Virus record (IMG/VR): IMGVR_UViG_648276671_000014
Direction: 5' to 3' (one strand)
Source: a virus
Lineage: Duplodnaviria; Heunggongvirae; Uroviricota; Caudoviricetes
Length of the DNA: 24,740 nt
Positions 4,202 to 24,740 of the stretch are shown here, piece after piece; within the stretch, counting starts at the first letter, position 1, and each line of letters starts with the position of its first letter. The notes beneath the pieces were generated by a model. That model did not search any database. It saw only the letters and a program-made list of their open reading frames with translations, and was not told the DNA's origin. The translations under genes and the position numbers were made by a program.

Positions 4202-5055
4202 GCACCATCCTGAAATGGGCGGGAAATAAAACCGCCATTATGTCCGAACTGAAAAAACACCTTCCTGCTGGCCCGCGACTGGTTGAACCTTTCGCGGGTT
4301 CCTGTGCTGTGATGATGGCGACGGATTACCCCAGCTATCTGGTTGCTGATATTAATCCTGATTTAATCAACCTCTATAAAAAGATTGCCGCTGATTGCGA
4401 AGCGTTTATATCTCGTGCCAGAGCTTTATTTGAGGAAGCAAACAGGGAGGTGGCTTATTACAACATAAGGCAGGAGTTTAACTGCTCAACTGAAATTACT
4501 GACTTCATGAAAGCAGTATATTTCCTGTATCTCAATCGTCACGGTTACCGTGGGTTATGTCGCTATAACAAGAGCGGGCATTTCAACATTCCCTACGGTA
4601 ATTATAAAAATCCGTATTTCCCTGAAAAAGAAATTCGCGCATTTGCAGAGAAAGCCCAGCGAGCAACGTTTATCTGCGCCAGCTTTGATGAAACGCTGGC
4701 GATGCTGCAGGTGGGGGATGTGGTGTATTGCGATCCGCCTTATGACGGTACGTTTTCCGGCTATCACACTGACGGCTTCACTGAAGATGACCAGTATCAC
4801 CTGGCATCTGTTCTTGAATATCGATCATCAGAAGGTCATCCAGTCATTGTTTCTAACAGTGACACATCCCTGATCCGTTCGCTGTATCGAAATTTCACTC
4901 ACCACTACATCAAGGCAAAACGCAGCATCGGCGTGTCGGCTGGCGAGAGTAAATCTGCAACAGAAATCATTGCTGTTTCCGGGGCGCGCTGCTGGGTGGG
5001 ATTTGATCCTTCGTGTGGCGTGGATAGTTCTGCTGTGTACGAGGTGCGTATATGA
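4198..5055 (+). CDS. dam: Dam-like N6-adenine DNA methyltransferase (285 aa)
   Basis: N-terminal LKWAGNK...EPFAGS (AdoMet-binding) and catalytic DPPY motif; [14 protein letters not shown] segment resembles E. coli Dam; GGAG Shine-Dalgarno, start overlaps the upstream stop (ATGA). Confidence 0.85.
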
Positions 5056-7466
5056 GTCATGACGATATGAGCAACTCTAGCGGCTTTAACGAGGCCGCTG
5101 CAGCATTTTCATGGAACGGCCCGAAAAAGGCCATTAACCCTTATCTGGACCCGGCGGAAGTTGCGCCGGAGTCTGCACTTTCAAACCTGATCACTCTGTA
5201 CGCTGCCGATAATGAGCAGGAACAGCTGCGCCGCGATGCACTGAGTGAGCAGGTCTGGGAGCGTTATTTCTTTAATGAATCTCGTGATCCTGTCCAGCGC
5301 GAAATGGAGCAGGATAAGCTCATTAGCCGGGCAAAGCTGGCGCATGAACAGCAGCGTTTTAACCCGGACATGGTCATTCTGGCGGACGTCAGCGCCCAGC
5401 CCACCCATATTAGCAAGCCGCTGATGCAACGTATCGAATACTTCAGCAGCCTGGGCAGGCCAAAGGCTTATTCCCGCTATTTGCGTGAGACGATTAAGCC
5501 ATGTCTGGAGCGACTGGATTGTGTACGTGACAGTCAGCTGTCTGCTTCTTTCCGTTTTATGGCAAGCCATCAAGGGCTGGAGGGCCTGCTGATCCTGCCT
5601 GAAATGAGTCAGGATCAGGTGAAACGCCTGTCCACCCTGGTAGCTGCGCATATGAGCATGTGCCTTGATGCAGCTTGTGGCGATTTGTATGCCACCGATG
5701 ACGTTAAGCCAGAAGAAATCCGCAAGACATGGGAAAAGGTGGCGGCGGAAACCCTGCGTCTGGATGTCATCCCACCTGCGTTTGAGCAACTCCGTCGGAA
5801 AAGAAACCGCCGTAAACCCGTGCCCTATGAACTCATTCCGGGTTCGCTGGCGCGTATGTTGTGCGCCGACTGGTGGTATCGGAAATTATGGAAGATGCGT
5901 TGCGAATGGCGGGAAGAGCAGTTGCGTGCTGTCTGCCTGGTCAGCAAAAAAGCATCTCCCTATGTCAGCTATGAAGCCGTGATGCATAAACGTGAGCAGC
6001 GCCGTAAGTCGCTGGAGTTTTTCCGTTCTCATGAACTGGTGAACGAAGACGGCGACACGCTGGACATGGAGGATGTGGTAAACGCCAGCAGCAGCAACCC
6101 TGCGCATCGCCGCAATGAGATGATGGCCTGTGTTAAAGGTCTGGAGCTTATCGCGGAAATGCGCGGTGACTGCGCCGTTTTCTACACTATCACCTGTCCG
6201 TCACGTTTCCATTCCACGCTCAACAACGGCAGACCCAACCCAACCTGGACAAATGCGACGGTAAGACAAAGCAGCGATTATCTGGTCGGCATGTTTGCTG
6301 CATTTCGTAAGGCAATGCACAAAACCGGGTTGCGCTGGTATGGCGTACGGGTGGCTGAGCCGCACCATGACGGTACTGTGCACTGGCATCTCATGTGCTT
6401 CATGCGTAAAAAAGACCGCCGCGCCATCACTGCATTACTGCGTAAGTTTGCCATCCGTGTAGACCGCGAGGAGCTGGGCAACAATACGGGGCCACGCTTT
6501 AAGTCTGAGCTGATTAACCCGCGCAAAGGAACACCGACAAGCTACATCGCGAAATACATCAGTAAGAACATTGACGGGCGTGGTCTGGCTGGCGAGATCA
6601 GCAAGGAAACGGGTAAATCCCTGCGTGATAACGCCGAATACGTCAATGCCTGGGCGTCTCTGCATCGTGTTCAGCAGTTCCGCTTCTTTGGTATTCCGGG
6701 ACGTCAGGCTTACCGTGAACTTCGCTTGCTGGCTGGTCAGGCGGCAAGGCAACAGGGTGACAAAAAAGCAGGTGCGCCGATACTGGATGACCCGCGCCTT
6801 GATGCCATCCTGGCTGCTGCTGATGCTGGTTGTTTTGCCACCTACATCATGAAGCAGGGCGGCGTACTGGTTCCCCGTAAATATCACCTTATCAGAACCG
6901 CTTATGAAATCAACGAAGAGCCGACCGCCTATGGCGATCACGGCATTCGTATTTATGGCATCTGGTCACCCATTGCAGAGGGCAAGATCTGCACTCATGC
7001 AGTGAAGTGGAAAATGGTTCGTAAGGCCGTTGACGTTCAGGAGGCGGTAGCCGACCAGGGCGCTTGCGCCCCTTGGACTCGTGGCAATAACTGTCCCCTT
7101 GCTGAAAATTTGAACCAACAAGGGAAAGACAAATCAGCTGATGGGGATACCAGGACGGACATTACCCGCATGGATGACAAGGAGTTGCACGATTACCTGC
7201 ACAGTATGAGCAAAAAAGAGCGCCGGGAACTGGCTGCAAGGTTACGCCTGGTGAAACCGAAACGGCGTAAAGACTACAAACAGCGAATTACAGACCATCA
7301 GCGACAGCGGCTCGTCTATGAACTGAAGTCCAGAGGATTTGATGGCAGCGAGAAAGAGGTCGATTTACTCCTTCGCGGCGGCAGTATTCCGTCAGGAGCA
7401 GGCCTGCGTATCTTCTATCGGAACCAGCGTTTGCAGGAAGATGATAAGTGGCGAAACCTGTATTAA
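5052..7466 (+). CDS. A: Replication initiation endonuclease, gpA/RepA type (804 aa)
   Basis: Large early ORF in the expected position and size, with the tyrosine-containing [12 protein letters not shown] segment remembered from P2 A family proteins; start overlaps the dam stop. Confidence 0.9.
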
Positions 7467-8322: not shown

Positions 8323-8538
8323 ATGTCAAGCATCGCCGCATTTAGCCTGGGTAACCCAGTTGAACGTCTGGCAAGGGTTCTTAAAGAGAACCAGGACAAA
8401 CTCAATCTTAGTAAAGATGGTTTTGTGTCCGTAGACTTGTCTAACAAAAGAGCAATGGATGCCATCAAGGCACAGATGGATAAGCTTGAAGGCATCAAAA
8501 CGAGCACTGTAAAAGAGAAAACTAATAGAACCAGATAA
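8323..8538 (+). CDS. Hypothetical protein (71 aa), first gene of an AT-rich cargo operon
   Basis: GGGGGAG Shine-Dalgarno before ATG 8323; hydrophilic; stop overlaps the next start (TAATG). Confidence 0.55.
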   Translation: MSSIAAFSLGNPVERLARVLKENQDKLNLSKDGFVSVDLSNKRAMDAIKAQMDKLEGIKTSTVKEKTNRTR

Positions 8539-8738
8539 TGGCAACATTACTTTTAGCAGTGATTTTGGTTAGTGGTTTTATTTATGTAAACCTATCACTT
8601 TCAACAAGATACCGATATAAGCGTTCCAACGGCTGGGACGCTTATTTTTTGTGGCTGCCTGGGGTATCGTTTTTTTCTCCTTGGCGGTTTTTTCACCTTT
8701 ATTTTGAACGTCAGCGGAGGGTTTCGTTGGCTGGCTAA
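8538..8738 (+). CDS. Small membrane ORF (66 aa), probably the N-terminal fragment of a frameshifted multi-pass membrane protein
   Basis: Translationally coupled ATG; hydrophobic helix LLLAVILVSGFIYVNL; reading frame ends just after three poly-T tracts. Confidence 0.4.
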   Translation: MATLLLAVILVSGFIYVNLSLSTRYRYKRSNGWDAYFLWLPGVSFFSPWRFFHLYFERQRRVSLAG

Positions 8739-8772
8739 TGCCTTGAATCTAACACCTGACAGTTTTAATGGC

Positions 8773-9378
8773 ATGTTGTCTTCATCGAAAGACAAACTTC
8801 AAAGAATAAATGAAATCAAACAGATAGCATGGGTTATGATTTCAATTGTTCTCGCTGCGATTTCAGGTTTTGGAAATAAGTTACGCACATCACGTGGAGA
8901 TCGTCGCTGGGATGCCTTAGCTAAAGCTGTGGGTAATAACGCTTTCGAATCATTACTCATGGAAGCGTCCGCAAGACAGTTTCCGATCATAGCAACTCTG
9001 TCGTCTCGCAAAATCTATGTTGGTCTTGTTACTTGTCCGGCGTTAGAAAACGGGCTTTCAGAACACCTTGAACTTCTCCCGATGTTAAGCGGATATCGGG
9101 ATAAAGATGATCTAACGATTAGTATCACGACTAACTATCACCAACATTATCTTGATAGTGGTGTGATAAGTGGAATGTCTCGGCTTAATATCGAAGATTT
9201 CCGTGTGCTCATACCAAAAGATGAGGTTGAAACAATTTCGTTTTTTGATACTGAGACATATAACAAATTTAAAGAAAATGAAGCCAGGGATAGAAAGAAC
9301 TGTCGAAAGATTGGTAGTAAAAGTGCATCTTCGCGCAGCAAGCGTGCAGCAGATGCTGAGTCAAATGATCGTGCATGA
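8773..9378 (+). CDS. Hypothetical protein (201 aa from ATG 8773; frame is open from 8590), probably the C-terminal continuation of the 8538 gene
   Basis: No Shine-Dalgarno before ATG 8773 or the upstream TTG 8704; frame stays open back into the 8538 ORF; hydrophobic segment IAWVMISIVLAAISGF then a soluble domain. Confidence 0.45.
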   Translation: MLSSSKDKLQRINEIKQIAWVMISIVLAAISGFGNKLRTSRGDRRWDALAKAVGNNAFESLLMEASARQFPIIATLSSRKIYVGLVTCPALENGLSEHLELLPMLSGYRDKDDLTISITTNYHQHYLDSGVISGMSRLNIEDFRVLIPKDEVETISFFDTETYNKFKENEARDRKNCRKIGSKSASSRSKRAADAESNDRA

Positions 9379-9426
9379 CTATGCTGCATGAGATCGCATG
9401 ATCGTTTGAGGATCGTTTTTGCTAAG

Positions 9427-9450
9427 GCCCGCCAGAACTGGCGGGCTTTT
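9427..9450 (+). terminator. Rho-independent terminator (GCCCGCCA-GAAC-TGGCGGGC then TTTT)
   Basis: Perfect 8-bp GC-rich stem followed by a T run, 49 bp after the operon stop. Confidence 0.6.
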
Positions 9451-9495
9451 GCGTAGATCATGCACCTGCATGAAAACTACTACATAAAGCGGGCA

Positions 9496-9514
9496 GGCGT
9501 GGCGGGGATACGAG
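9496..9514. other. Candidate cos cohesive-end site (GGCGTGGCGGGGATACGAG)
   Basis: First 13 nt match the remembered 186/P2 cohesive end (GGCG[T/A]GGCGGGGA...), followed by TGCGCG as in P2; lies between the early region and portal gene Q. Confidence 0.4.
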
Positions 9515-9538
9515 TGCGCGTAATAACTAATATTCCTA

Positions 9539-9657: not shown

Positions 9658-9685
9658 GAGCATTTTAGAGTGTTCTTTGCCTAAC
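9648..9685 (+). repeat. Perfect 12-bp inverted repeat (GTTAGGCAAAGA ... TCTTTGCCTAAC) forming a long hairpin ending 1 nt before the Shine-Dalgarno of the downstream ORF
   Basis: Arms at 9648-9659 and 9674-9685 are exact reverse complements; the loop can pair further with G-U pairs. Confidence 0.8.
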
Positions 9686-9697
9686 AGGATACGTAAA

Positions 9698-10447
9698 ATG
9701 ACTGATGACGAGATTAAAAATATTTTCCATGCTCAAACTGATAATGTTAGAGAGCTTGAGAAAGTCTGGAAACAAATAGTCAAAGAAATTAATACTGCAT
9801 TACGAACAGATAATGCAGTCCAAGTTGCACTTAAAACCAAAATGCTAGGTTTGGTTTTTTGCGCTCTTGCCGAAGCTCAATTTTCAAAGTTGATCCACAC
9901 GCCCGGTCAATTTTCCCCTAATGAAATAGAACAGATTAAATATGCAGCTTCATCTAATGTCTCAGATGGATGGTTAAAGTGCATAAATTTGGCTACGAGA
10001 CGACTATCGAAAGGCACAAAGCATAATCATGTTCCTAATGTTATTCAGGAGCTTGAAAGACTAGTTGATGATTTTATAAAAGCGCCAAGTTTAATTAGAA
10101 ATAAAATTGCGCATGGACAATGGGTTGTCGCTCTTAATAGAAAGAATACACATGTGAACTCAGAAATGACACATACTTTGCGTAATTTGACAATAGTGGA
10201 ATTAACAAAGTTTAAAGATGCTTTCACGAGAATGTCGCGAATAGTCGAAGATATTATTAAATCTCCTAATAAAGCTCATTTGCGTGATTATTGGCCGCAG
10301 CTTGAAGAGTTTAGAGCAAAGCAAAAGGAAATGGATAGTTGGACTCTTGCTGAAAAAGTCTTCCAATTAAAAAAGAAATATAATTACTCATCTAATATGA
10401 GATGTGAATCATGCGGTCAGTTACATGTTGATAGAAATAAACAATGA
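9698..10447 (+). CDS. HEPN-motif protein (249 aa), candidate RNase or abortive-infection effector
   Basis: AGGA Shine-Dalgarno 8 nt before ATG 9698; R134-N-K-I-A-H139 fits the HEPN Rx4-6H signature; AT-rich codon usage unlike the phage core. Confidence 0.65.
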   Translation: MTDDEIKNIFHAQTDNVRELEKVWKQIVKEINTALRTDNAVQVALKTKMLGLVFCALAEAQFSKLIHTPGQFSPNEIEQIKYAASSNVSDGWLKCINLATRRLSKGTKHNHVPNVIQELERLVDDFIKAPSLIRNKIAHGQWVVALNRKNTHVNSEMTHTLRNLTIVELTKFKDAFTRMSRIVEDIIKSPNKAHLRDYWPQLEEFRAKQKEMDSWTLAEKVFQLKKKYNYSSNMRCESCGQLHVDRNKQ

Positions 10448-10537: not shown

Positions 10538-11581
10538 TTAGTTATCTTCTGTCCTGAGCGAGTAAAAGCTAAAACGGAGAATTTCTTCACCAAGCCAGTT
10601 ATTTAGTTCCTGTAAACGTTTCTGCAGTGACATTAGTTCATTGCGTACAAAAACGCGACTAGCTTTCTCCACATCCCCAAATCCCCCAACATTATTTGGC
10701 ATTATCCCCATCATCTGTGGCGGCACGCGGTGCGCTGCCATCATGTCATCCCGACTCACGTTCTTGATATTAAGAAATTCATCCTTCGCCGCGACTTCTG
10801 ACAATGGGATGATCTGAAGCCCGTCCTTTTTGCCGTTAGGCGAGTACATAAACAGGTTGCGGAAGTTGCCTGGACCTTTGGCGCTTTTCATCGCGTTGCG
10901 GAGGTTGTTCACATCTTCCTGGTTCTGCGCGGCATCGGTCATGTACATGATGAAGCCTGCATGGCTGCCGTTGATGTAATACTTACGGCGGAACAGCGTG
11001 GCAGACTCGTTGAGCAGGGCGGATGGAATGGCAGAAAGATAGCCGGGCAGGCCGTAGATCTCCTGGTTGATGTCCGGTTCCATCAGATGAAAAATGCTGC
11101 CTTTCGTGAACTGATACGGCTGGGTTGTCATACCGTATTGCACAAACCAGTAGGTATCCAGGTCTAACCCGCGTCGGGTGTATTTTGCCAGCGCAGGCTC
11201 AAGGGCGATAACTTCACCGAATCGGTTCGTGCGTTTCTCCAGGTAGGCGTTACCAAATACCAGATAGTCCTGCACAAAACGCGAAAAAGCCTGCTGGCTG
11301 AGCAGCGGATGAGGGATATAGGTACTGGTCAGAATGTTGCACTTTACTGCAATCGGGGAACTGTGATGCACGGCGGCGCGGAAGGTGCGCGCCAGTCCGT
11401 TAAAGCTGACGGGCGGCTCATACCAACGGTCCATCTGTACGCATTCCACATAGTCCAGCAGTTCACGGCGGTCCAGAACAGGAACGGGATCGCCGAAGCT
11501 GAATGCTTCGGCTGTAGTTTGACTTTTAAGCTGGATCTGTTTCGTCGCCGCAGCTCGGTTCTTCTTACTCTTTCCCATCAA
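10538..11581 (-). CDS. Q: Portal protein gpQ (347 aa)
   Basis: Size and position immediately after cos and upstream of P as in P2/186; stop overlaps P (ATGA). Confidence 0.9.
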   Translation of the reverse strand: MMGKSKKNRAAATKQIQLKSQTTAEAFSFGDPVPVLDRRELLDYVECVQMDRWYEPPVSFNGLARTFRAAVHHSSPIAVKCNILTSTYIPHPLLSQQAFSRFVQDYLVFGNAYLEKRTNRFGEVIALEPALAKYTRRGLDLDTYWFVQYGMTTQPYQFTKGSIFHLMEPDINQEIYGLPGYLSAIPSALLNESATLFRRKYYINGSHAGFIMYMTDAAQNQEDVNNLRNAMKSAKGPGNFRNLFMYSPNGKKDGLQIIPLSEVAAKDEFLNIKNVSRDDMMAAHRVPPQMMGIMPNNVGGFGDVEKASRVFVRNELMSLQKRLQELNNWLGEEILRFSFYSLRTEDN

Positions 11582-13344
11582 AAAATCTCCACAATATTGC
11601 TGGTATTGGCGGATTCGCCCTGCAGCGGTTCGTTAAACAGTGCGTGCATCGTTGCCCATGCCAGATCGGCGTGGCTGGCTTCTTCGCTGCGGCTGGCTTC
11701 ATAGGTCGGGCGGTTGCCACTGGCGGTGGTGGCGCGACGGATTGCCATAAATGACTGCGCAATGTCGGTATGTCCGGCGTCAAACTCCAGACGGCGGTGG
11801 CTGATAATGTCGTAGGCCTTGAGTACCAGGGCGTTTTTAACGTTGGGGTTGTAGACAAACTCCCGGACGGCAGGAAAGAACGCTTTCACGTTCTCGTAAA
11901 CCCCGTGACCAACGCCGGTTGAGTCGATGCCGATGTAGGTCACGTTGTACTGCTCGGTCAGTTTTTTGATTGCGTCAGCCTGGGCGCGGAAGTCCATCCC
12001 GCGCCACTGGTGACGCTCAAGAATGCGAAACTTACCGCCCGGCACGGCTGGCGGTGCCACCACCACGCATCCGGCGCTGTCGCCGTTCTGCGTACCTTTT
12101 GCCGGGTCATAACCGATCCACACTTCGCGCCAGCCAAACGGGCGCAGGGCCAGAGCATGAAAGTCGGTCCAGACTTCCCAACTGTCCACCATGCACGCCT
12201 GCAGCTCGCTGAGCGGAAACACGGACGCGAGATCGTCCACAAACTCGCACATCAGCAGGTTCTGGTATTCGTCCAGGCTGTACTCCATGCGCAACTGGTC
12301 GAGGTCGAACAGGTTACAGCCGCCGCGCACCGCATCTTCCACAGTGACTATCTGGCGGTACTGCCCGTCTGCGCACAGCAGGCCGGGGGCCAGATTGCTG
12401 TGGGACAGGTCGATGTCCACCTTATCGGCTTTGTTGCGCCCACGATTGAACAGCGCACCGGACCAGAACGGATAAGCACTGTGAGTCAGGCTGGATGGCG
12501 TGGAAAAATAGGTTTGTCGCCATTTTTTGTGAATAGCCATCCCGGAAGCCACTTTGCGCAGCTCCTGGAATTTCGGTATCCAGAAATATTCATCCAGATA
12601 CAGGTTGCCGTGGTAACTCTGGGCCGTGCGGGCATTGGTGCCGAGGAAGTAAAGCGTGGCTCCGTTAGGAAGCACCATCGGATCGCCTTTTAGCTCTACC
12701 TCGACTTCTTTGGCGAAGTCGATGATGTACTGCTTAAAGACGTGAGCCTGTGCCTTACTGGCGGAAAGGAAAATCTGGTTACGTCCGGTAAGCAGGGCGT
12801 CAATCAGGGCTTCACGGGCAAAGTAAAAGGTCGCGCCGATCTGGCGTGACTTCAGCAGGTTGCGGATGCGGTTGGTTTTTCCGGCTTCCCACCAGTGGCG
12901 CTGGTAGTTGAACATGGAGGAATGGAAGATTTCTTCCAGTTTCTCAATCTGTTCATCGGTGAAAACATTCTTTTCCGGCTGACGGCGCGGGCCCTTATTG
13001 CGGTTGGCGACGTTAGGGTTTAAGTCAGCTTCGTTGCCGCCATTGTTAAACTTGCCGATCCGCGCGTGGCGCTCCGACTGGCGCGCCAGCAGGTCAATTT
13101 CTTTGAAATCTTTCCCTTCTTTATGCTCCTTCATGATGAGCTGGCAGTAGCGTGCGGCGGTGGTGAGCTGCATCTGATCCAGCGGCCCATAGTCACCCCA
13201 CTTGTCGCGTTTTTTCCAGCTGTGAACGGTTGCAACTTTCTCGCCCAGCATTTCAGCAATGCGGGCTACGCGGTATCCCTGAAAGTACAGCAGCATGGCC
13301 TGCCGACGGGGATCGAGATCTGCGGGTGTCAGTGTGGTGTTCAT
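11578..13344 (-). CDS. P: Terminase large (ATPase) subunit gpP (588 aa)
   Basis: Size matches P2 P; divergent from O across the late promoter region. Confidence 0.9.
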   Translation of the reverse strand: MNTTLTPADLDPRRQAMLLYFQGYRVARIAEMLGEKVATVHSWKKRDKWGDYGPLDQMQLTTAARYCQLIMKEHKEGKDFKEIDLLARQSERHARIGKFNNGGNEADLNPNVANRNKGPRRQPEKNVFTDEQIEKLEEIFHSSMFNYQRHWWEAGKTNRIRNLLKSRQIGATFYFAREALIDALLTGRNQIFLSASKAQAHVFKQYIIDFAKEVEVELKGDPMVLPNGATLYFLGTNARTAQSYHGNLYLDEYFWIPKFQELRKVASGMAIHKKWRQTYFSTPSSLTHSAYPFWSGALFNRGRNKADKVDIDLSHSNLAPGLLCADGQYRQIVTVEDAVRGGCNLFDLDQLRMEYSLDEYQNLLMCEFVDDLASVFPLSELQACMVDSWEVWTDFHALALRPFGWREVWIGYDPAKGTQNGDSAGCVVVAPPAVPGGKFRILERHQWRGMDFRAQADAIKKLTEQYNVTYIGIDSTGVGHGVYENVKAFFPAVREFVYNPNVKNALVLKAYDIISHRRLEFDAGHTDIAQSFMAIRRATTASGNRPTYEASRSEEASHADLAWATMHALFNEPLQGESANTSNIVEIF

Positions 13345-13486: not shown

Positions 13487-14341
13487 ATGACAGTGAAAGC
13501 AAAGCGTTTTCGCATCGGGGTGGAAGGTGCCACCACCGACGGACGCGAAATCCAGCGTGAATGGCTGGAACAGATGGCAGCCAGCTACAACCCGACGGTG
13601 TACACCGCGCTGATTAACCTTGAGCACATCAAGTCTTATCTGCCGGACAGCACCTTTAACCGCTACGGCAAGGTGACGGCGCTGTTTGCTGAAGAAATCA
13701 CGGAAGGTCCGCTGGCAGGCAAGATGGCGCTGTATGCCGACGTTGAGCCAACGGAATCACTGGTGGAACTGGTGAAAAAAGGCCAGAAATTATTCACCTC
13801 TATGGAAGTCAGCCCGAAGTTTGCTGATACGGGCAAAGCCTACCTGGTCGGCCTGGCTGCCACTGATGACCCTGCCAGTCTGGGCACTGAAATGCTGACA
13901 TTCAGCGCCAGTGCAGCCCATAACCCGCTGGCAAACCGCAAGCAGAATCCCGCCAATCTTTTTACCGCTGCAGAGGAAACGGTGATCGAACTGGAAGAAA
14001 TCCAGGATGACAAACCGTCCCTGTTTGCCCGTGTCACGGCGCTGTTCACCAAAAAAGAGCAGTCCGATGACGCCCGGTTCTCTGATGTGCATAAGGCCGT
14101 GGAACTGGTCGCCACTGAGCAGCAGGACCTGAGTGCGCGCACCGAAAAATCCCTGTCTGAGCAGGAAGAACGCCTGTCTGAGCAGGAAGAACGCCTGTCT
14201 GAGCTGGAGACTGCCCTGCAGGCACAGCAGACCGCCTTTAACGAACTGGTGGACAAGCTGAGCCAAGAAGACAGCCGCCAGGACTACCGCCAGCGTGCAA
14301 CAGGCGGTAACGCCCCCGCTGACACTCTGACCAATTGCTGA
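13487..14341 (+). CDS. O: Capsid scaffolding protein gpO (284 aa)
   Basis: Position and length match P2 O; acidic coiled-coil C-terminus. Confidence 0.85.
   Translation: MTVKAKRFRIGVEGATTDGREIQREWLEQMAASYNPTVYTALINLEHIKSYLPDSTFNRYGKVTALFAEEITEGPLAGKMALYADVEPTESLVELVKKGQKLFTSMEVSPKFADTGKAYLVGLAATDDPASLGTEMLTFSASAAHNPLANRKQNPANLFTAAEETVIELEEIQDDKPSLFARVTALFTKKEQSDDARFSDVHKAVELVATEQQDLSARTEKSLSEQEERLSEQEERLSELETALQAQQTAFNELVDKLSQEDSRQDYRQRATGGNAPADTLTNC
14153..14205 (+). repeat. In-frame tandem duplication of a 21-bp unit (CTGTCTGAGCAGGAAGAACGC, 2.5 copies) inside O
   Basis: Read directly; encodes LSEQEER-LSEQEER-LSELE. Confidence 0.8.
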
Positions 14342-16070: not shown

Positions 16071-16164
16071 CAGAACGTGCCCCGCGCACGGGCGGCACGG
16101 GGTGGCGAAAGGCACAGCCACATCAAAACTCCGTCCACCGCCCTCTATTTCAGGAGAAAGCAGC

Positions 16165-17051: not shown

Positions 17052-17547
17052 ACGCTGCCTTGTCGGAGCCGTGCTGGCTATTGCTGCCACGCTGCCGGGT
17101 TTTCAGCAGCTTCACACCTCCGTGGAGGGGCTGAAACTGATTGCCGATTACGAAGGCTGTCGTCTGCAGCCGTATCAGTGCAGCGCGGGTGTCTGGACCG
17201 ACGGCATTGGTAATACATCGGGCGTCATTCCCGGCAAAACAATCACGGAACGACAGGCAGCAGAAGGGCTGATCTCAAACGTGCTACGTGTGGAGCGGGC
17301 GCTGGAAAGATGTGTGAAGCAACAGCCGCCACAAAAGGTGTATGACGCGGTGGTGTCGTTTGCCTTCAACGTGGGGACGGGCAATGCCTGCAGTTCCACG
17401 CTGGTGAAGTTACTCAATCAGCGGCGCTGGGCGGATGCGTGCCGACAGTTGCCGCGCTGGGTTTATGTGAAAGGTGTGTTTAATCAGGGGCTGGATAATC
17501 GCCGTGCGCGGGAGATGGCCTGGTGCCTTAAAGGAACTGGACTATGA
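17032..17547 (+). CDS. K: SAR-type endolysin (T4-lysozyme-like), 171 aa from ATG 17032
   Basis: N-terminal weakly hydrophobic signal-anchor (LVGAVLAIAATLPGF) followed by a lysozyme-like domain; GGGAGG Shine-Dalgarno. Confidence 0.8.
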   Translation: MNPSIVKRCLVGAVLAIAATLPGFQQLHTSVEGLKLIADYEGCRLQPYQCSAGVWTDGIGNTSGVIPGKTITERQAAEGLISNVLRVERALERCVKQQPPQKVYDAVVSFAFNVGTGNACSSTLVKLLNQRRWADACRQLPRWVYVKGVFNQGLDNRRAREMAWCLKGTGL

Positions 17548-17971
17548 CGCGTGCGCTGGCAGTAGTGGTGGCGCTGGCACTCGTTGCGCTGGGCTGGCAG
17601 TCGTGGCGGCTTAACAGCGCCAGCCACACCATCGAAACGCAGCGCGCGGCGCTGAAAAGTAAAGCGCAAGAACTGACAAAGAAAACAGCCAGCTGATCGG
17701 TCTGTCCATTCTGGCTGAAACCAACAACCGGGAGCAGGCGCGGCTCTACGCCGAAGCAGAACAGACCAGCGCACTGCTGAGACAACGACAACGCCGGATC
17801 GAGGAACTGAAACGTGAGAACGAGGATTTACGCCGCTGGGCTGATACTCCTTTGCCTGCTGACATTATCCGGCTGCGGGAACGTCCGGCACTCACCGGAG
17901 GTGCAGCTTACCGTCAGTGGTTGTCCGCGAGTGACGCCGTGTCGGCTGGAGCAGGCAGCGCCGCGCACTAA
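17544..17971 (+). pseudogene. lysB: lysB (Rz-like i-spanin) with a frame change between 17663 and 17693
   Basis: N-terminal membrane-anchor part reads in one frame to a stop at 17694-17696; the coiled-coil C-terminal part reads in another frame from 17663 to TAA 17969-17971 with no start codon of its own. Confidence 0.5.
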
Positions 17972-18104
17972 CGGTGATCTGAACGCATTGCTGGATGAAA
18001 CGGAGGCCGCCTGGGCGGTCTGTGCAGACAAAGTGGACATGATTATTGCGTGTCAGGAGCGAAACAGTGAACAAACCACAGTCCCTGCGTCACGCCCTCA
18101 ATAA
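17814..18104 (+). CDS. lysC: lysC (Rz1-like o-spanin lipoprotein, 96 aa), embedded in and extending past lysB
   Basis: GTG start; signal peptide plus lipobox LTLSGC; length matches P2 LysC. Confidence 0.65.
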   Translation: MRTRIYAAGLILLCLLTLSGCGNVRHSPEVQLTVSGCPRVTPCRLEQAAPRTNGDLNALLDETEAAWAVCADKVDMIIACQERNSEQTTVPASRPQ

Positions 18105-19203: not shown

Positions 19204-20787
19204 TTAGAGTTTCAGTGAAATCGTATCCTTGTATTTTTGTTTTATTAACATAAAGTAATCATCAATGCTACCAGAGACTAACATTGCTTCATGATCAATT
19301 CCGTTTATATAGAACCCATTGAACTCAATTGAATTTACTCCATATAAATGTTGAATTCTATCTGCGGTTAATTTATTTTCGGCAATACCAACTAAAATAT
19401 AGCCTTTTGCGCTTTTTCCAATATTATTTATTGCTACGCAAGTTTGTAATATTCCTTTTAAACATTCATCATCAAATTCATTTTTACCTGATAAATTAAA
19501 GAACCCCTGTTTGAAATCATAACTTGGTTGTTCAGTTCTAGAATTTGTTAATAGATTGCGAATTTCAGTTACCCAAGCATGATTCACATACTTTTGAGGA
19601 GCAGGTTGGAAGTAGCGACTTATTAATGCAACAAGATCATTAACACTTTTTTCACGAGTGCTTGCAGCCCAGCGGCCACCATCGGTAACCATAATTATGG
19701 TATTGCCAGTGTTTTTTAATTGCGAGAATAAACCTTCTTTATCAATTAATTGCATATTTTGGTTGAAAAGAAGTTCATAAATAGACAAAAACACAGCTTG
19801 ATAATAACGAGGGCATTCTTGAGATGAATTATCCTCCCCTAAAATATGGCTTCTAAAAGTATCATTTTTTCCGTCATATAGGCTTGTAATTAATTCATAT
19901 ACAGCTATGAAATTCTGCTTAATAGTGGCAGCGTTATTGGTTTGAATGAAAGACTCTAATTGCTGTCTGACACCATGAGCATGAGAGGAGTTTCCTTGAC
20001 CATAGAATGTGTCGAGAGAAGTTGACCCAGATGTGGGTTTTTCTTCTAGACTGATATATGCAAGGATATTGGCTATCAATTCCTCGTCATCAGAATCACG
20101 AATACTTCGTCTTGTTAAAATATGATGTTTTATATAAAAGTGGTTATCGATATTTACCCCGTACTCCAATCTATCGTTACTGATTGAAATTTTGTGCATT
20201 TGCTGGAGATTCATAATGTCAGAATGGCTAGTATCACCTCTGATCGATGTTGATATCGATCTGACCAGTTCAGAGAAGTTACTAACTGTTCCTGCACTAC
20301 GTAATTCTTGTTTGGATAAAATCTTCCCGTTTGAGTTTATTCGTCTGAATACTTCGTCAATATTTTCATTTGTGGAGCTATATTCTGATATTGCAAATCG
20401 ATAACGTGCAATAATTGCTGAAGAATCACGGGAAAGAATTGGTTCTTTCTGAATTAAAGTTCCATTATCTTTAAGTTGTTTTGTTAAAGCTATAGAGTCC
20501 AAATCAAAATATTGTCCATCTAATGAAAATCTCTGTTCGATGAAGCTCATAATTGCTTCTAATCTTTGCATTCCATCCAATATTTCTCTTTGTTCATTGA
20601 TGGTAACAAATAATAATAACGGAATAGGATATTGTTGCAGCATAGAAGATATTAAAGAAGTCTTTTCTTCTAGAGACCATACAAGTTTCCTTTGATAACG
20701 TCTATTGACTATCAAATTTCCTTGCAAATACCATTCGTATAATTGCTCGGTAGTCCTTGAGTCAATATCAAGATTTTCATTTGGCAT
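19204..20787 (-). CDS. DUF262 (ParB/Srx-like, DGQQR-type) domain protein, 527 aa, with an unassigned C-terminal half
   Basis: AAGGAG Shine-Dalgarno 7 nt before ATG 20787; N-terminal motifs NRRYQRKLVW and DGMQRL match the DUF262 signature; no DUF1524-type EHI.P motif seen; strongly AT-rich and opposite in orientation to the flanking late genes. Confidence 0.8.
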   Translation of the reverse strand: MPNENLDIDSRTTEQLYEWYLQGNLIVNRRYQRKLVWSLEEKTSLISSMLQQYPIPLLLFVTINEQREILDGMQRLEAIMSFIEQRFSLDGQYFDLDSIALTKQLKDNGTLIQKEPILSRDSSAIIARYRFAISEYSSTNENIDEVFRRINSNGKILSKQELRSAGTVSNFSELVRSISTSIRGDTSHSDIMNLQQMHKISISNDRLEYGVNIDNHFYIKHHILTRRSIRDSDDEELIANILAYISLEEKPTSGSTSLDTFYGQGNSSHAHGVRQQLESFIQTNNAATIKQNFIAVYELITSLYDGKNDTFRSHILGEDNSSQECPRYYQAVFLSIYELLFNQNMQLIDKEGLFSQLKNTGNTIIMVTDGGRWAASTREKSVNDLVALISRYFQPAPQKYVNHAWVTEIRNLLTNSRTEQPSYDFKQGFFNLSGKNEFDDECLKGILQTCVAINNIGKSAKGYILVGIAENKLTADRIQHLYGVNSIEFNGFYINGIDHEAMLVSGSIDDYFMLIKQKYKDTISLKL

Positions 20788-21001
20788 AATTTTTCTCCTT
20801 GTTAGATTGAACTTATATATTGTCAATAAACATCTTTTGTGTCAAAGATTACATAGTAACTGCCTAAATTAATTGGCTTTTAATAATTAAAGACGTAGCT
20901 TTCAAGTGCTTTTTTAAGAGCATTGAACTTCTTAACTTGCGCAACGTCATTCGACCTTTTGCAACGTATTAATGCTCTAACGCAGACCATTGAAAGGCAT
21001 T

Positions 21002-23493: not shown

Positions 23494-24740
23494 GCACAAA
23501 ATTTTATACCCTGCTGACGGATATTGGCGCGGCGAAACTTGCCAGCGCCGCCGCGCTCGGTGTGCCGCTAAAAATTACCCATATGGCGGTCGGCGATGGC
23601 GGCGGAGTATTGCCAACGCCAGACTCAAAGCAGACTGCACTGGTAAATGAGAAACGCCGGGCTGCGCTGAATATGCTCTATATCGACCCGCAGAACAGCA
23701 GCCAGATTATTGCCGAACAGGTGATCCCTGAAAACGAGGGCGGTTGGTGGATACGTGAAGTGGGCTTGTTTGATGAGTCCGGGGCATTGATTGCCGTGGG
23801 CAACTGCCCGGAAAGCTATAAGCCGCAACTGGCTGAAGGTAGCGGGCGCACTCAGACCGTGCGCATGGTGCTGATTACCAGCAGCACGGACAATATCACC
23901 CTGAAAATCGACCCTGCCGTAGTGCTGGCAACCCGCAAGTATGTGGATGACAAGGCACTGGAGCTGAAGGTGTACGCGGATGATCAGATGGCAAAACATC
24001 TTGCCGCACCGGACCCGCATTCACAGTATGCACCCAAAGAAAGTCCGACGTTTACCGGGACACCCAAAGCGCCAACGCCAGCCGCAGGGAATAACACCAC
24101 GCAGATTGCGACCACCGCGTTTGTTCAGGCGGCTCTGACGGCTCTTATTAATGGTGCGCCAGCCACGCTGGACACGCTGAAAGAAATAGCCGCAGCCATT
24201 AACAATGATCCGAAATTCAGTACCACCATTAACAATGCGCTGGCACTGAAAGCGCCGCTGTCGAGTCCGGCACTCACCGGAACGCCAACCGCACCTACTG
24301 CGGCACAGTCGGTCAACAATACACAGATTGCCACCACGGCATTTGTGAAGTCGGCGATTGCGGCAATGGTGGGTTCTGCACCTGCGGCACTGGATACACT
24401 GAACGAACTGGCGGCAGCGCTGGGGAATGACCCGAACTTTGCCACGACAATGCTTAATGCGCTGGCAGGTAAACAACCGCTGGACAATACGCTGACTAAT
24501 TTGAGTGGAAAGGATGTAGCTGGTCTTCTCACATACCTTGGTTTGGGAGAAGGTTCGGCATTACCCGTTGGGGTGCCTGTTCCGTGGCCTTCAGCCACTC
24601 CGCCAACAGGCTGGCTGAAATGCAATGGTGCGGCTTTTTCTGCTGAAGAATACCCGGAACTGACAAAGGCTTACCCGACTAATAAATTGCCTGATTTACG
24701 CGGTGAATTTATTCGTGGCTGGGATGACGGCGGGGATTGA
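23490..24740 (+). CDS. H: Tail fibre protein gpH (416 aa); stop codon is the last three bases of the window
   Basis: N-terminus (..TMAVGDGGG, ESYKP.LAEGSGR.QT.RMV) parallels P2 H; contains two copies of a repeated module (NNTQIATTAFV ... LDTL.E.AAA..NDP.F). Confidence 0.85.
   Translation: MSTKFYTLLTDIGAAKLASAAALGVPLKITHMAVGDGGGVLPTPDSKQTALVNEKRRAALNMLYIDPQNSSQIIAEQVIPENEGGWWIREVGLFDESGALIAVGNCPESYKPQLAEGSGRTQTVRMVLITSSTDNITLKIDPAVVLATRKYVDDKALELKVYADDQMAKHLAAPDPHSQYAPKESPTFTGTPKAPTPAAGNNTTQIATTAFVQAALTALINGAPATLDTLKEIAAAINNDPKFSTTINNALALKAPLSSPALTGTPTAPTAAQSVNNTQIATTAFVKSAIAAMVGSAPAALDTLNELAAALGNDPNFATTMLNALAGKQPLDNTLTNLSGKDVAGLLTYLGLGEGSALPVGVPVPWPSATPPTGWLKCNGAAFSAEEYPELTKAYPTNKLPDLRGEFIRGWDDGGD

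Follow-up and report, generated by a model that had tools for sequence, protein, structure and literature searches.

Contingency loci, as described in Neisseria, Haemophilus, Helicobacter, and Bordetella, carry homopolymers in the 5′ part of an envelope-protein gene, and changes in tract length shift the reading frame. Homopolymer miscalls in draft assemblies, whether of the pyrosequencing era or built from uncorrected long reads, show up as private one-base indels in unrelated genes and intergenic DNA and create apparent pseudogenes in sequence that is otherwise identical to that of relatives; the concern is a general one (PMC4746626). Intrinsic terminators and attenuators combine a stem with a G+C-containing core, a short loop, and an immediate U-rich tail. 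Finally, the interval between genes A and Q of P2-like phages (gpA-gpQ, the old/tin locus) is a hotspot for variable anti-phage cargo, and the transmembrane proteins of anti-phage systems have been discussed as presumed effectors (Rousset et al. 2022, PMC9122126). The locus described here, a membrane-protein gene interrupted at a cluster of T runs in a prophage of E. coli TA280, resembles each of these in part. As in contingency loci, its homopolymers lie in the 5′ part of an envelope-protein gene and their length shifts the frame, but the tracts are short (6 to 8 bases), near-invariant in relatives, and not maintained as DNA in other genera; moreover, two of them are affected at once, and the defect is not locus-specific in the TA280 assembly. 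It has the private one-base homopolymer indels of miscalled drafts, and the sister panel assembly H120 is documented with the same problem, whereas a 10-kb chromosomal flank of TA280 is free of such errors. A hairpin inside the gene has the G+C-containing stem core, 5-nt loop, and immediate U-rich tail (UUAUUUUUUUGU) of an intrinsic terminator, and its structure is conserved beyond coding need, with compensatory changes, yet it sits ∼80 to 115 nt inside a coding sequence rather than after one or in a leader. The gene and its small upstream partner share their position with the cargo of the gpA-gpQ hotspot, but their proteins match no PADLOC, Pfam, or NCBIfam model and no described defense family.

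The DNA analyzed is a stretch of 24,740 nt (hereafter the window) from a P2-like (Peduoviridae) prophage, with an integrase at its left end, a DinI-like gene, and head, lysis, and tail genes. It is 100% identical to scaffold GL884339.1 of the draft assembly GCA_000176655.2, whose proteins are named after E. coli TA280. Within it, an ORF at 8538-8738 (frame 0) overlaps another at 8704-9378 (frame 1), in a different frame, across a stretch that contains the T runs. The features involved are as follows.

8538-9378, plus strand: membrane-protein gene, 841 nt here versus 843 nt when intact; 280 aa, WP_000212611.1, phrog_3630
8645-8650, plus strand: T run 1, T6 here versus T7 in the intact gene; encodes Tyr36-Phe37-Phe38; site of the first −1 deletion; U-tail of the hairpin
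8670-8676, plus strand: T run 2, T7 here versus T8 in the intact E. coli-type gene; encodes Val-Phe-Phe; site of the second −1 deletion
8688-8693, plus strand: T run 3, T6 as in the intact gene; encodes Gly-Phe-Phe; no part in the frame break

The three tracts, T6 at 8645-8650, T7 at 8670-8676, and T6 at 8688-8693, are exactly where an earlier sequence-only reading had placed them. That reading also put the frame switch at the clustered runs, which proved half right: the break does fall there, but alignment with intact homologues resolved it into two breaks, namely separate 1-nt deletions that turned T7 into T6 at 8645 and T8 into T7 at 8670, with run 3 uninvolved. The reading path therefore moves from frame 0 to frame 2 for 25 nt and then to frame 1. 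Adding one T to run 1 (8645) and one to run 2 (8670) yielded a protein identical at 280/280 positions to WP_000212611.1 and to those of loci L001 and L007. A single frameshift joining both ORFs was ruled out by the same alignment, with its two −1 deletions and unaltered run 3. The possibility that the two ORFs are independent genes with their own starts, which the sequence-only reading had set against its own account, was ruled out as well: relatives carry one 843-nt coding sequence, annotated as such (280 aa) in Ec1115 and in Klebsiella phage ST15-OXA48phi14.1.

The clustering of the T runs is mildly unusual. The window holds 36 homopolymers of at least 6 bases, 19 of them T runs; under uniform placement, three runs fall within 50 nt with P ∼0.075 if all 36 are counted and with P = 0.011 if the 19 T runs alone are. 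Coding content explains the cluster: the runs encode Tyr-Phe-Phe, Val-Phe-Phe, and Gly-Phe-Phe in predicted membrane helix 2, and the T runs are a consequence of this Phe-Phe-rich helix. At its intact length of T8, run 2 would be the longest homopolymer of the window.

The intact 843-nt gene, encoding a 280-aa protein with three predicted membrane helices and reading T7, T8, and T6 at the three runs, occurs in more than 60 related prophages. Matches to 8538-9378 were found in 52 complete E. coli genomes, 50 of them at ≥99% identity; among the matches listed (40 complete E. coli genomes), the gene spans 843 nt in 39 and 842 nt in MIN9. We compared tract lengths, as the sequence-only reading had proposed, in 47 further loci drawn from IMG/VR, complete genomes, and other assemblies. 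At run 1, 46 of the 47 have T7; the exception, locus L058, has an inserted A. At run 2, 18 of 20 E. coli-type loci have T8, while MIN9 has T7 and L049 has T9, and synonymous changes break the run in Klebsiella, Serratia, and other alleles (GTC TTT TTC, GTG TTC TTT, and others). At run 3, every E. coli-type locus has T6, and synonymous changes interrupt the tract elsewhere. Runs 2 and 3 are thus not conserved as DNA in other genera, though the protein is. The pattern among relatives is not that of a maintained hypermutable tract. Broken alleles occur in three other assemblies, all inside the same T-rich 50 nt (T8 to T7 in MIN9, T8 to T9 in L049, and the inserted A in L058). MIN9 is a complete genome, with T7, T7, and T6 at the three runs in the alignment; the only further 1-nt deletion of its prophage is in the invertase, outside homopolymers, and it shows no general homopolymer problem.

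We surveyed the prophage for further one-base lesions by comparing the window, plus 5 kb upstream and 7 kb downstream of it on the scaffold, with up to 13 related prophages. The 31.6-kb prophage carries six private, uncompensated homopolymer indels, all of them −1 deletions in runs with a reference length of 5 to 8, and the comparison revealed no private insertions. The sites are 8645 and 8670, described above, together with 16080, 17682, 19234, and a site equivalent to 29057, beyond the window.

16080-16083, plus strand: C5 to C4, intergenic, between the terminase small-subunit and head-completion genes; C5 in 13 relatives
17682-17685, plus strand: A5 to A4, frameshifts the spanin gene lysB (∼17544-17972)
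19234-19238, minus strand: T6 to T5 (in plus-strand letters), truncates the GmrSD-like gene at 19204-20826 to 540 aa versus 591
29057-equivalent, beyond the window: A7 to A6, breaks the tail sheath gene

Restoring one base had the same effect at these sites as at the T runs: an extra A at 17682 gave a 142-aa LysB identical to that of locus L011, and an extra base at 19234 gave a GmrSD-like C terminus identical to that of the same locus. As a control, 12 relatives were compared with one another; they showed 0 homopolymer indels in 66 pairwise comparisons (880 kb aligned, with thousands of mismatches) and a single non-homopolymer event, private to one locus. The only non-homopolymer indels of the TA280 prophage are two 1-nt gaps at 24731 and 24733, which frameshift the tail-fiber gene H into a stop at 24738-24740; an 866-N scaffold gap follows 193 nt further on. 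The invertible tail-fiber/invertase region contains an IS3-family element and a second N gap (L019 13868-14733, 14734-15947, and 16404-16470). In the 10-kb chromosomal flank on the same scaffold, 62 homopolymers of at least 5 bases showed 0 private indels. Two length differences in this flank (L062 18568 and L008 2203) that were considered as errors were struck off, both being shared natural polymorphisms. One is A7 versus A8 in intergenic DNA upstream of dacC, and the A7 form is found in 796 of 5425 genomes; the other is T4 versus T5 in intergenic DNA downstream of ybjI, and strain P15-25 also has T4.

The frame break is probably a sequencing artefact, in which a draft assembly called T7 and T8 each one base short, because four other homopolymers of the same prophage have suffered the same loss. 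Consistently with miscalling, all isolated private indels (6 of 6) are one-base events private to this assembly and confined to homopolymers, and they are in excess over substitutions relative to near-identical DNA. No mismatch to intact relatives lies within 500 nt on either side of the T runs and only one within 1500 nt, i.e., the 3 kb around the tracts contains two indels versus one mismatch; near-identical blocks totaling 13.5 kb contain 4 private indels and no more than 7 private substitutions. Spontaneous mutation in repair-proficient E. coli produces indels and substitutions at a ratio of ∼1:10. Under this ratio, the probability of at least 4 indels in these 13.5 kb is ∼0.006. The platform was probably 454, assemblies of the same project and date having been made by pyrosequencing. 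A second independent assembly of TA280 was not found on record, and the gpO protein of this prophage is on one contig only. From the pattern of losses we infer base-calling, rather than biology, as the cause. If so, the underlying gene would be intact and unremarkable, the second member of a conserved pair (71 aa plus 280 aa).

The alternative with the next best standing is that the lesions are real and recent. Here, slippage would have removed one base from several homopolymers of a decaying, IS-disrupted P2-like prophage, an account that we consider possible if rather doubtful; with about the same reserve, we allow that the events would include the two longest runs of a dispensable cargo gene, leaving this gene dead in TA280. 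The defects do look prophage-specific, as real decay predicts, because all six private homopolymer deletions are in the prophage and none is in the flank despite its 62 at-risk runs, an outcome (0 of 6) with a probability of ∼0.10 if errors were uniform. The prophage may also be truly defective, since the IS3-family element in the tail-fiber/invertase region amounts to at least one real inactivating event. Broken alleles recur in the same 50 nt in MIN9, L049, and L058, and real slippage at run 2 is possible because MIN9, which has few other such defects and no general homopolymer problem, also went from T8 to T7. Against decay, 4 indels versus at most 7 substitutions is far from the spontaneous spectrum, and every event is a deletion. 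The prophage shows no nonsense mutation, no larger deletion, and no non-homopolymer indel besides the two 1-nt gaps beside the scaffold gap; one of the deletions shortens an intergenic C5 tract that does not vary among 13 relatives. Furthermore, the second deletion in a gene that was already dead must be a coincidence, and the truncated product is unique to the TA280 assembly: the exact 66-aa product of the window has no other occurrence among 153 billion gene positions. Of the three explanations offered by the sequence-only reading, inactivating mutation and sequencing error survive, with error the better supported, and the on/off switch does not.

According to that third explanation, the T runs would be a contingency locus that toggles the membrane protein by slipped-strand phase variation, and the window would have captured the OFF state. 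This is very unlikely. One further T lost from any of the three runs would indeed restore the downstream frame from T6/T7/T6, three other assemblies vary in length or sequence inside the same 50 nt, and the gene is in a phage-defense hotspot (PMC9122126), where the ability to silence a costly gene could be an advantage. However, tract lengths are near-uniform in relatives (T7 at run 1 in 46 of 47 loci, T8 at run 2 in 18 of 20 E. coli-type loci) and the gene keeps its 843 nt in 39 of the 40 complete genomes among the matches listed, while the synonymous interruptions of runs 2 and 3 in other genera mean that no hypermutable tract is maintained. Six to eight bases is short for a contingency tract, and such switches do not require two independent events to reach an OFF state. 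Nor is the −1 defect locus-specific, since four unrelated homopolymers of the assembly share it. As for run 1, its conservation belongs to the hairpin with its U-tail and to a conserved Tyr-Phe-Phe motif. Programmed recoding, in which two consecutive −1 ribosomal frameshifts or transcriptional slippage would yield the full-length protein, deserves next to no credence: both shifts needed are −1 and would occur on U-rich, slippery-looking sequence just 3′ of a stable hairpin, but nearly all homologues are in frame and require no shift, which in practice rules this reading out, two sequential low-efficiency events would be needed, and efficient transcriptional slippage is known from longer runs than T6 and T7.

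If the sequence were accepted as it stands, the split gene would enter annotations either as a phase-variable membrane protein or as a pseudogene, and both are probably wrong. Homopolymer frameshifts in the annotation of TA280 (GCA_000176655.2) deserve suspicion, with at least four genes of this one prophage affected. The caveat is a practical one because TA280 is in use as an experimental strain (bioRxiv 10.1101/2020.05.25.114553).

The affected gene is the second of a pair located between replication gene A and portal gene Q, within the following set of features.

5052-7466: replication endonuclease A
8323-8538, plus strand: small gene preceding its partner, the membrane-protein gene, with a stop that overlaps the latter's start (ATAATGG); 71 aa, phrog_9843
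9698-10447 (ORF listed as 9677-10447): cargo gene of the window prophage, 249 aa as called elsewhere; phrog_12663
10538-11581, minus strand: portal Q
11578-13344, minus strand: terminase

The 71-aa and 280-aa genes form a conserved module of two genes at the hotspot's left edge, because the small gene always precedes the 280-aa gene while at least 20 different cargo genes follow. The small gene is there, with overlapping stop and start, in all 45 close loci that include upstream DNA (45/45), and among distant family members 30 of the 45 loci scanned have an upstream gene of 60 to 90 aa with overlapping or adjacent stop and start. What comes after the module across prophages is one of at least 20 cargo genes (DUF4062, SEFIR, SieB-like, and others) or the portal gene directly. 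Homologues of the 280-aa protein occur in Enterobacterales, Aeromonas, Shewanella, Pasteurellaceae, Pseudomonas, and others. Profile searches with the 280-aa and 71-aa proteins returned no Pfam, PADLOC, or NCBIfam match, and their PHROG families (phrog_3630 and phrog_9843, respectively) are families of unknown function only. An AlphaFold2 model of the 280-aa protein (mean pLDDT, 79) predicts three long N-terminal helices and a C-terminal beta domain. This domain has a weak similarity to Sm-like beta-barrels in a fold search (E ∼3e-3), a model-based resemblance that is insufficient for assigning a function. We know of no anti-phage activity of the module. The cargo gene that follows it in the window, at 9698-10447, has a weak, sub-threshold match to HEPN_MAE_28990 (E = 0.05) and no PADLOC match; the exact 256-aa reading of this neighboring gene has no other occurrence, the gene being called at 249 aa. 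About 150 nt downstream of the module (9371-9520) are 95% conserved even in prophage KE47, which is without the module, and many loci show this stretch again as a spurious ORF ("MHLHENYYIKRAGVAGIR..."). Within it, at ∼9424-9452, a GC-rich inverted repeat followed by TTTT can be read from the sequence, although the terminator scan did not flag it. The 9371-9520 stretch may be a hotspot boundary or a terminator.

The membrane-protein gene also contains a terminator-like hairpin, upstream of and abutting T run 1. The hairpin, and the codons that illustrate synonymous constraint in and around it, are listed below.

8617-8645, plus strand: terminator-like hairpin, 12-bp stem and 5-nt loop, with T run 1 directly 3′
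Lys9, stem: AAG in 24/25
Arg10, stem: CGT in 23/25
Ala16, stem: GCT in 23/24
Arg5, flank: five codons in use
Ala21 and Ala22, flank: all four codons in use

The terminator scan reported it as ATAAGCGTTCCA-ACGGC-TGGGACGCTTAT followed by T run 1; this simple scan had one match in the region, which is within chance expectation. The predicted RNA fold has a minimum free energy of −16.8 kcal/mol (z = −3.47 versus shuffles). We examined pairing in 29 distinct alleles from at least 12 genera, down to ∼40% protein identity (E. coli, Klebsiella, Serratia, Photorhabdus, Citrobacter, Edwardsiella, Erwinia, Symbiopectobacterium, Aeromonas, Proteus, Pectobacterium, Enterobacter, and metagenomes). Across the 10-bp core helix, 98.3% of cells are paired, versus at most 51% in controls with slid partners, and compensatory changes affect two core pairs (U-A to C-G twice and U·G to G-C once). 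Synonymous sites are near-frozen in the codons of the stem and the U-tail, whereas flanking codons vary; third positions in the loop are variable, and a U-rich tail is retained in variant forms. T run 1 is therefore conserved as part of a nucleic acid element. The hairpin is lost in the Photobacterium, Shewanella, Pasteurellaceae, and Pseudomonas homologues, and a search of Rfam found no family at this position.

Most simply, the hairpin and T run 1 may constitute an intrinsic-terminator-like attenuator inside the gene. A wider proposal, that this attenuator belongs to a two-gene unit for exclusion or abortive infection, as yet undescribed, on the left side of the P2 defense hotspot, is speculative and on balance unlikely. 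In such a scheme, the hairpin would form and transcription would stop when ribosomes fail to re-initiate at the overlapping stop and start (ATAATGG) of the 71-aa gene, so that a possibly toxic membrane effector would be kept low relative to its small partner; length changes in the neighboring T runs would be a side effect of the T-rich design. Alternatively, the hairpin may be a signal for translational pausing immediately past membrane helix 1, or it may be a DNA-level site. None of this alters the verdict on the frame break. A conserved RNA hairpin with a U tract in a widespread, uncharacterized module is a candidate for within-gene attenuation, a finding of modest independent value.

Two other genes of the prophage are worth recording. 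The capsid scaffold gene gpO contains an in-frame 21-nt tandem duplication (CCTGTCTGAGCAGGAAGAACG) at 14152-14172, which lengthens the protein to 284 aa versus 277; the 284-aa protein is the one found on a single contig of the whole collection. The GmrSD-like gene (19204-20826, minus strand) occupies the second cargo site, flanked by the tail-completion gene and the baseplate V gene, and its PADLOC matches are NsnA and PD-T4-2_A.
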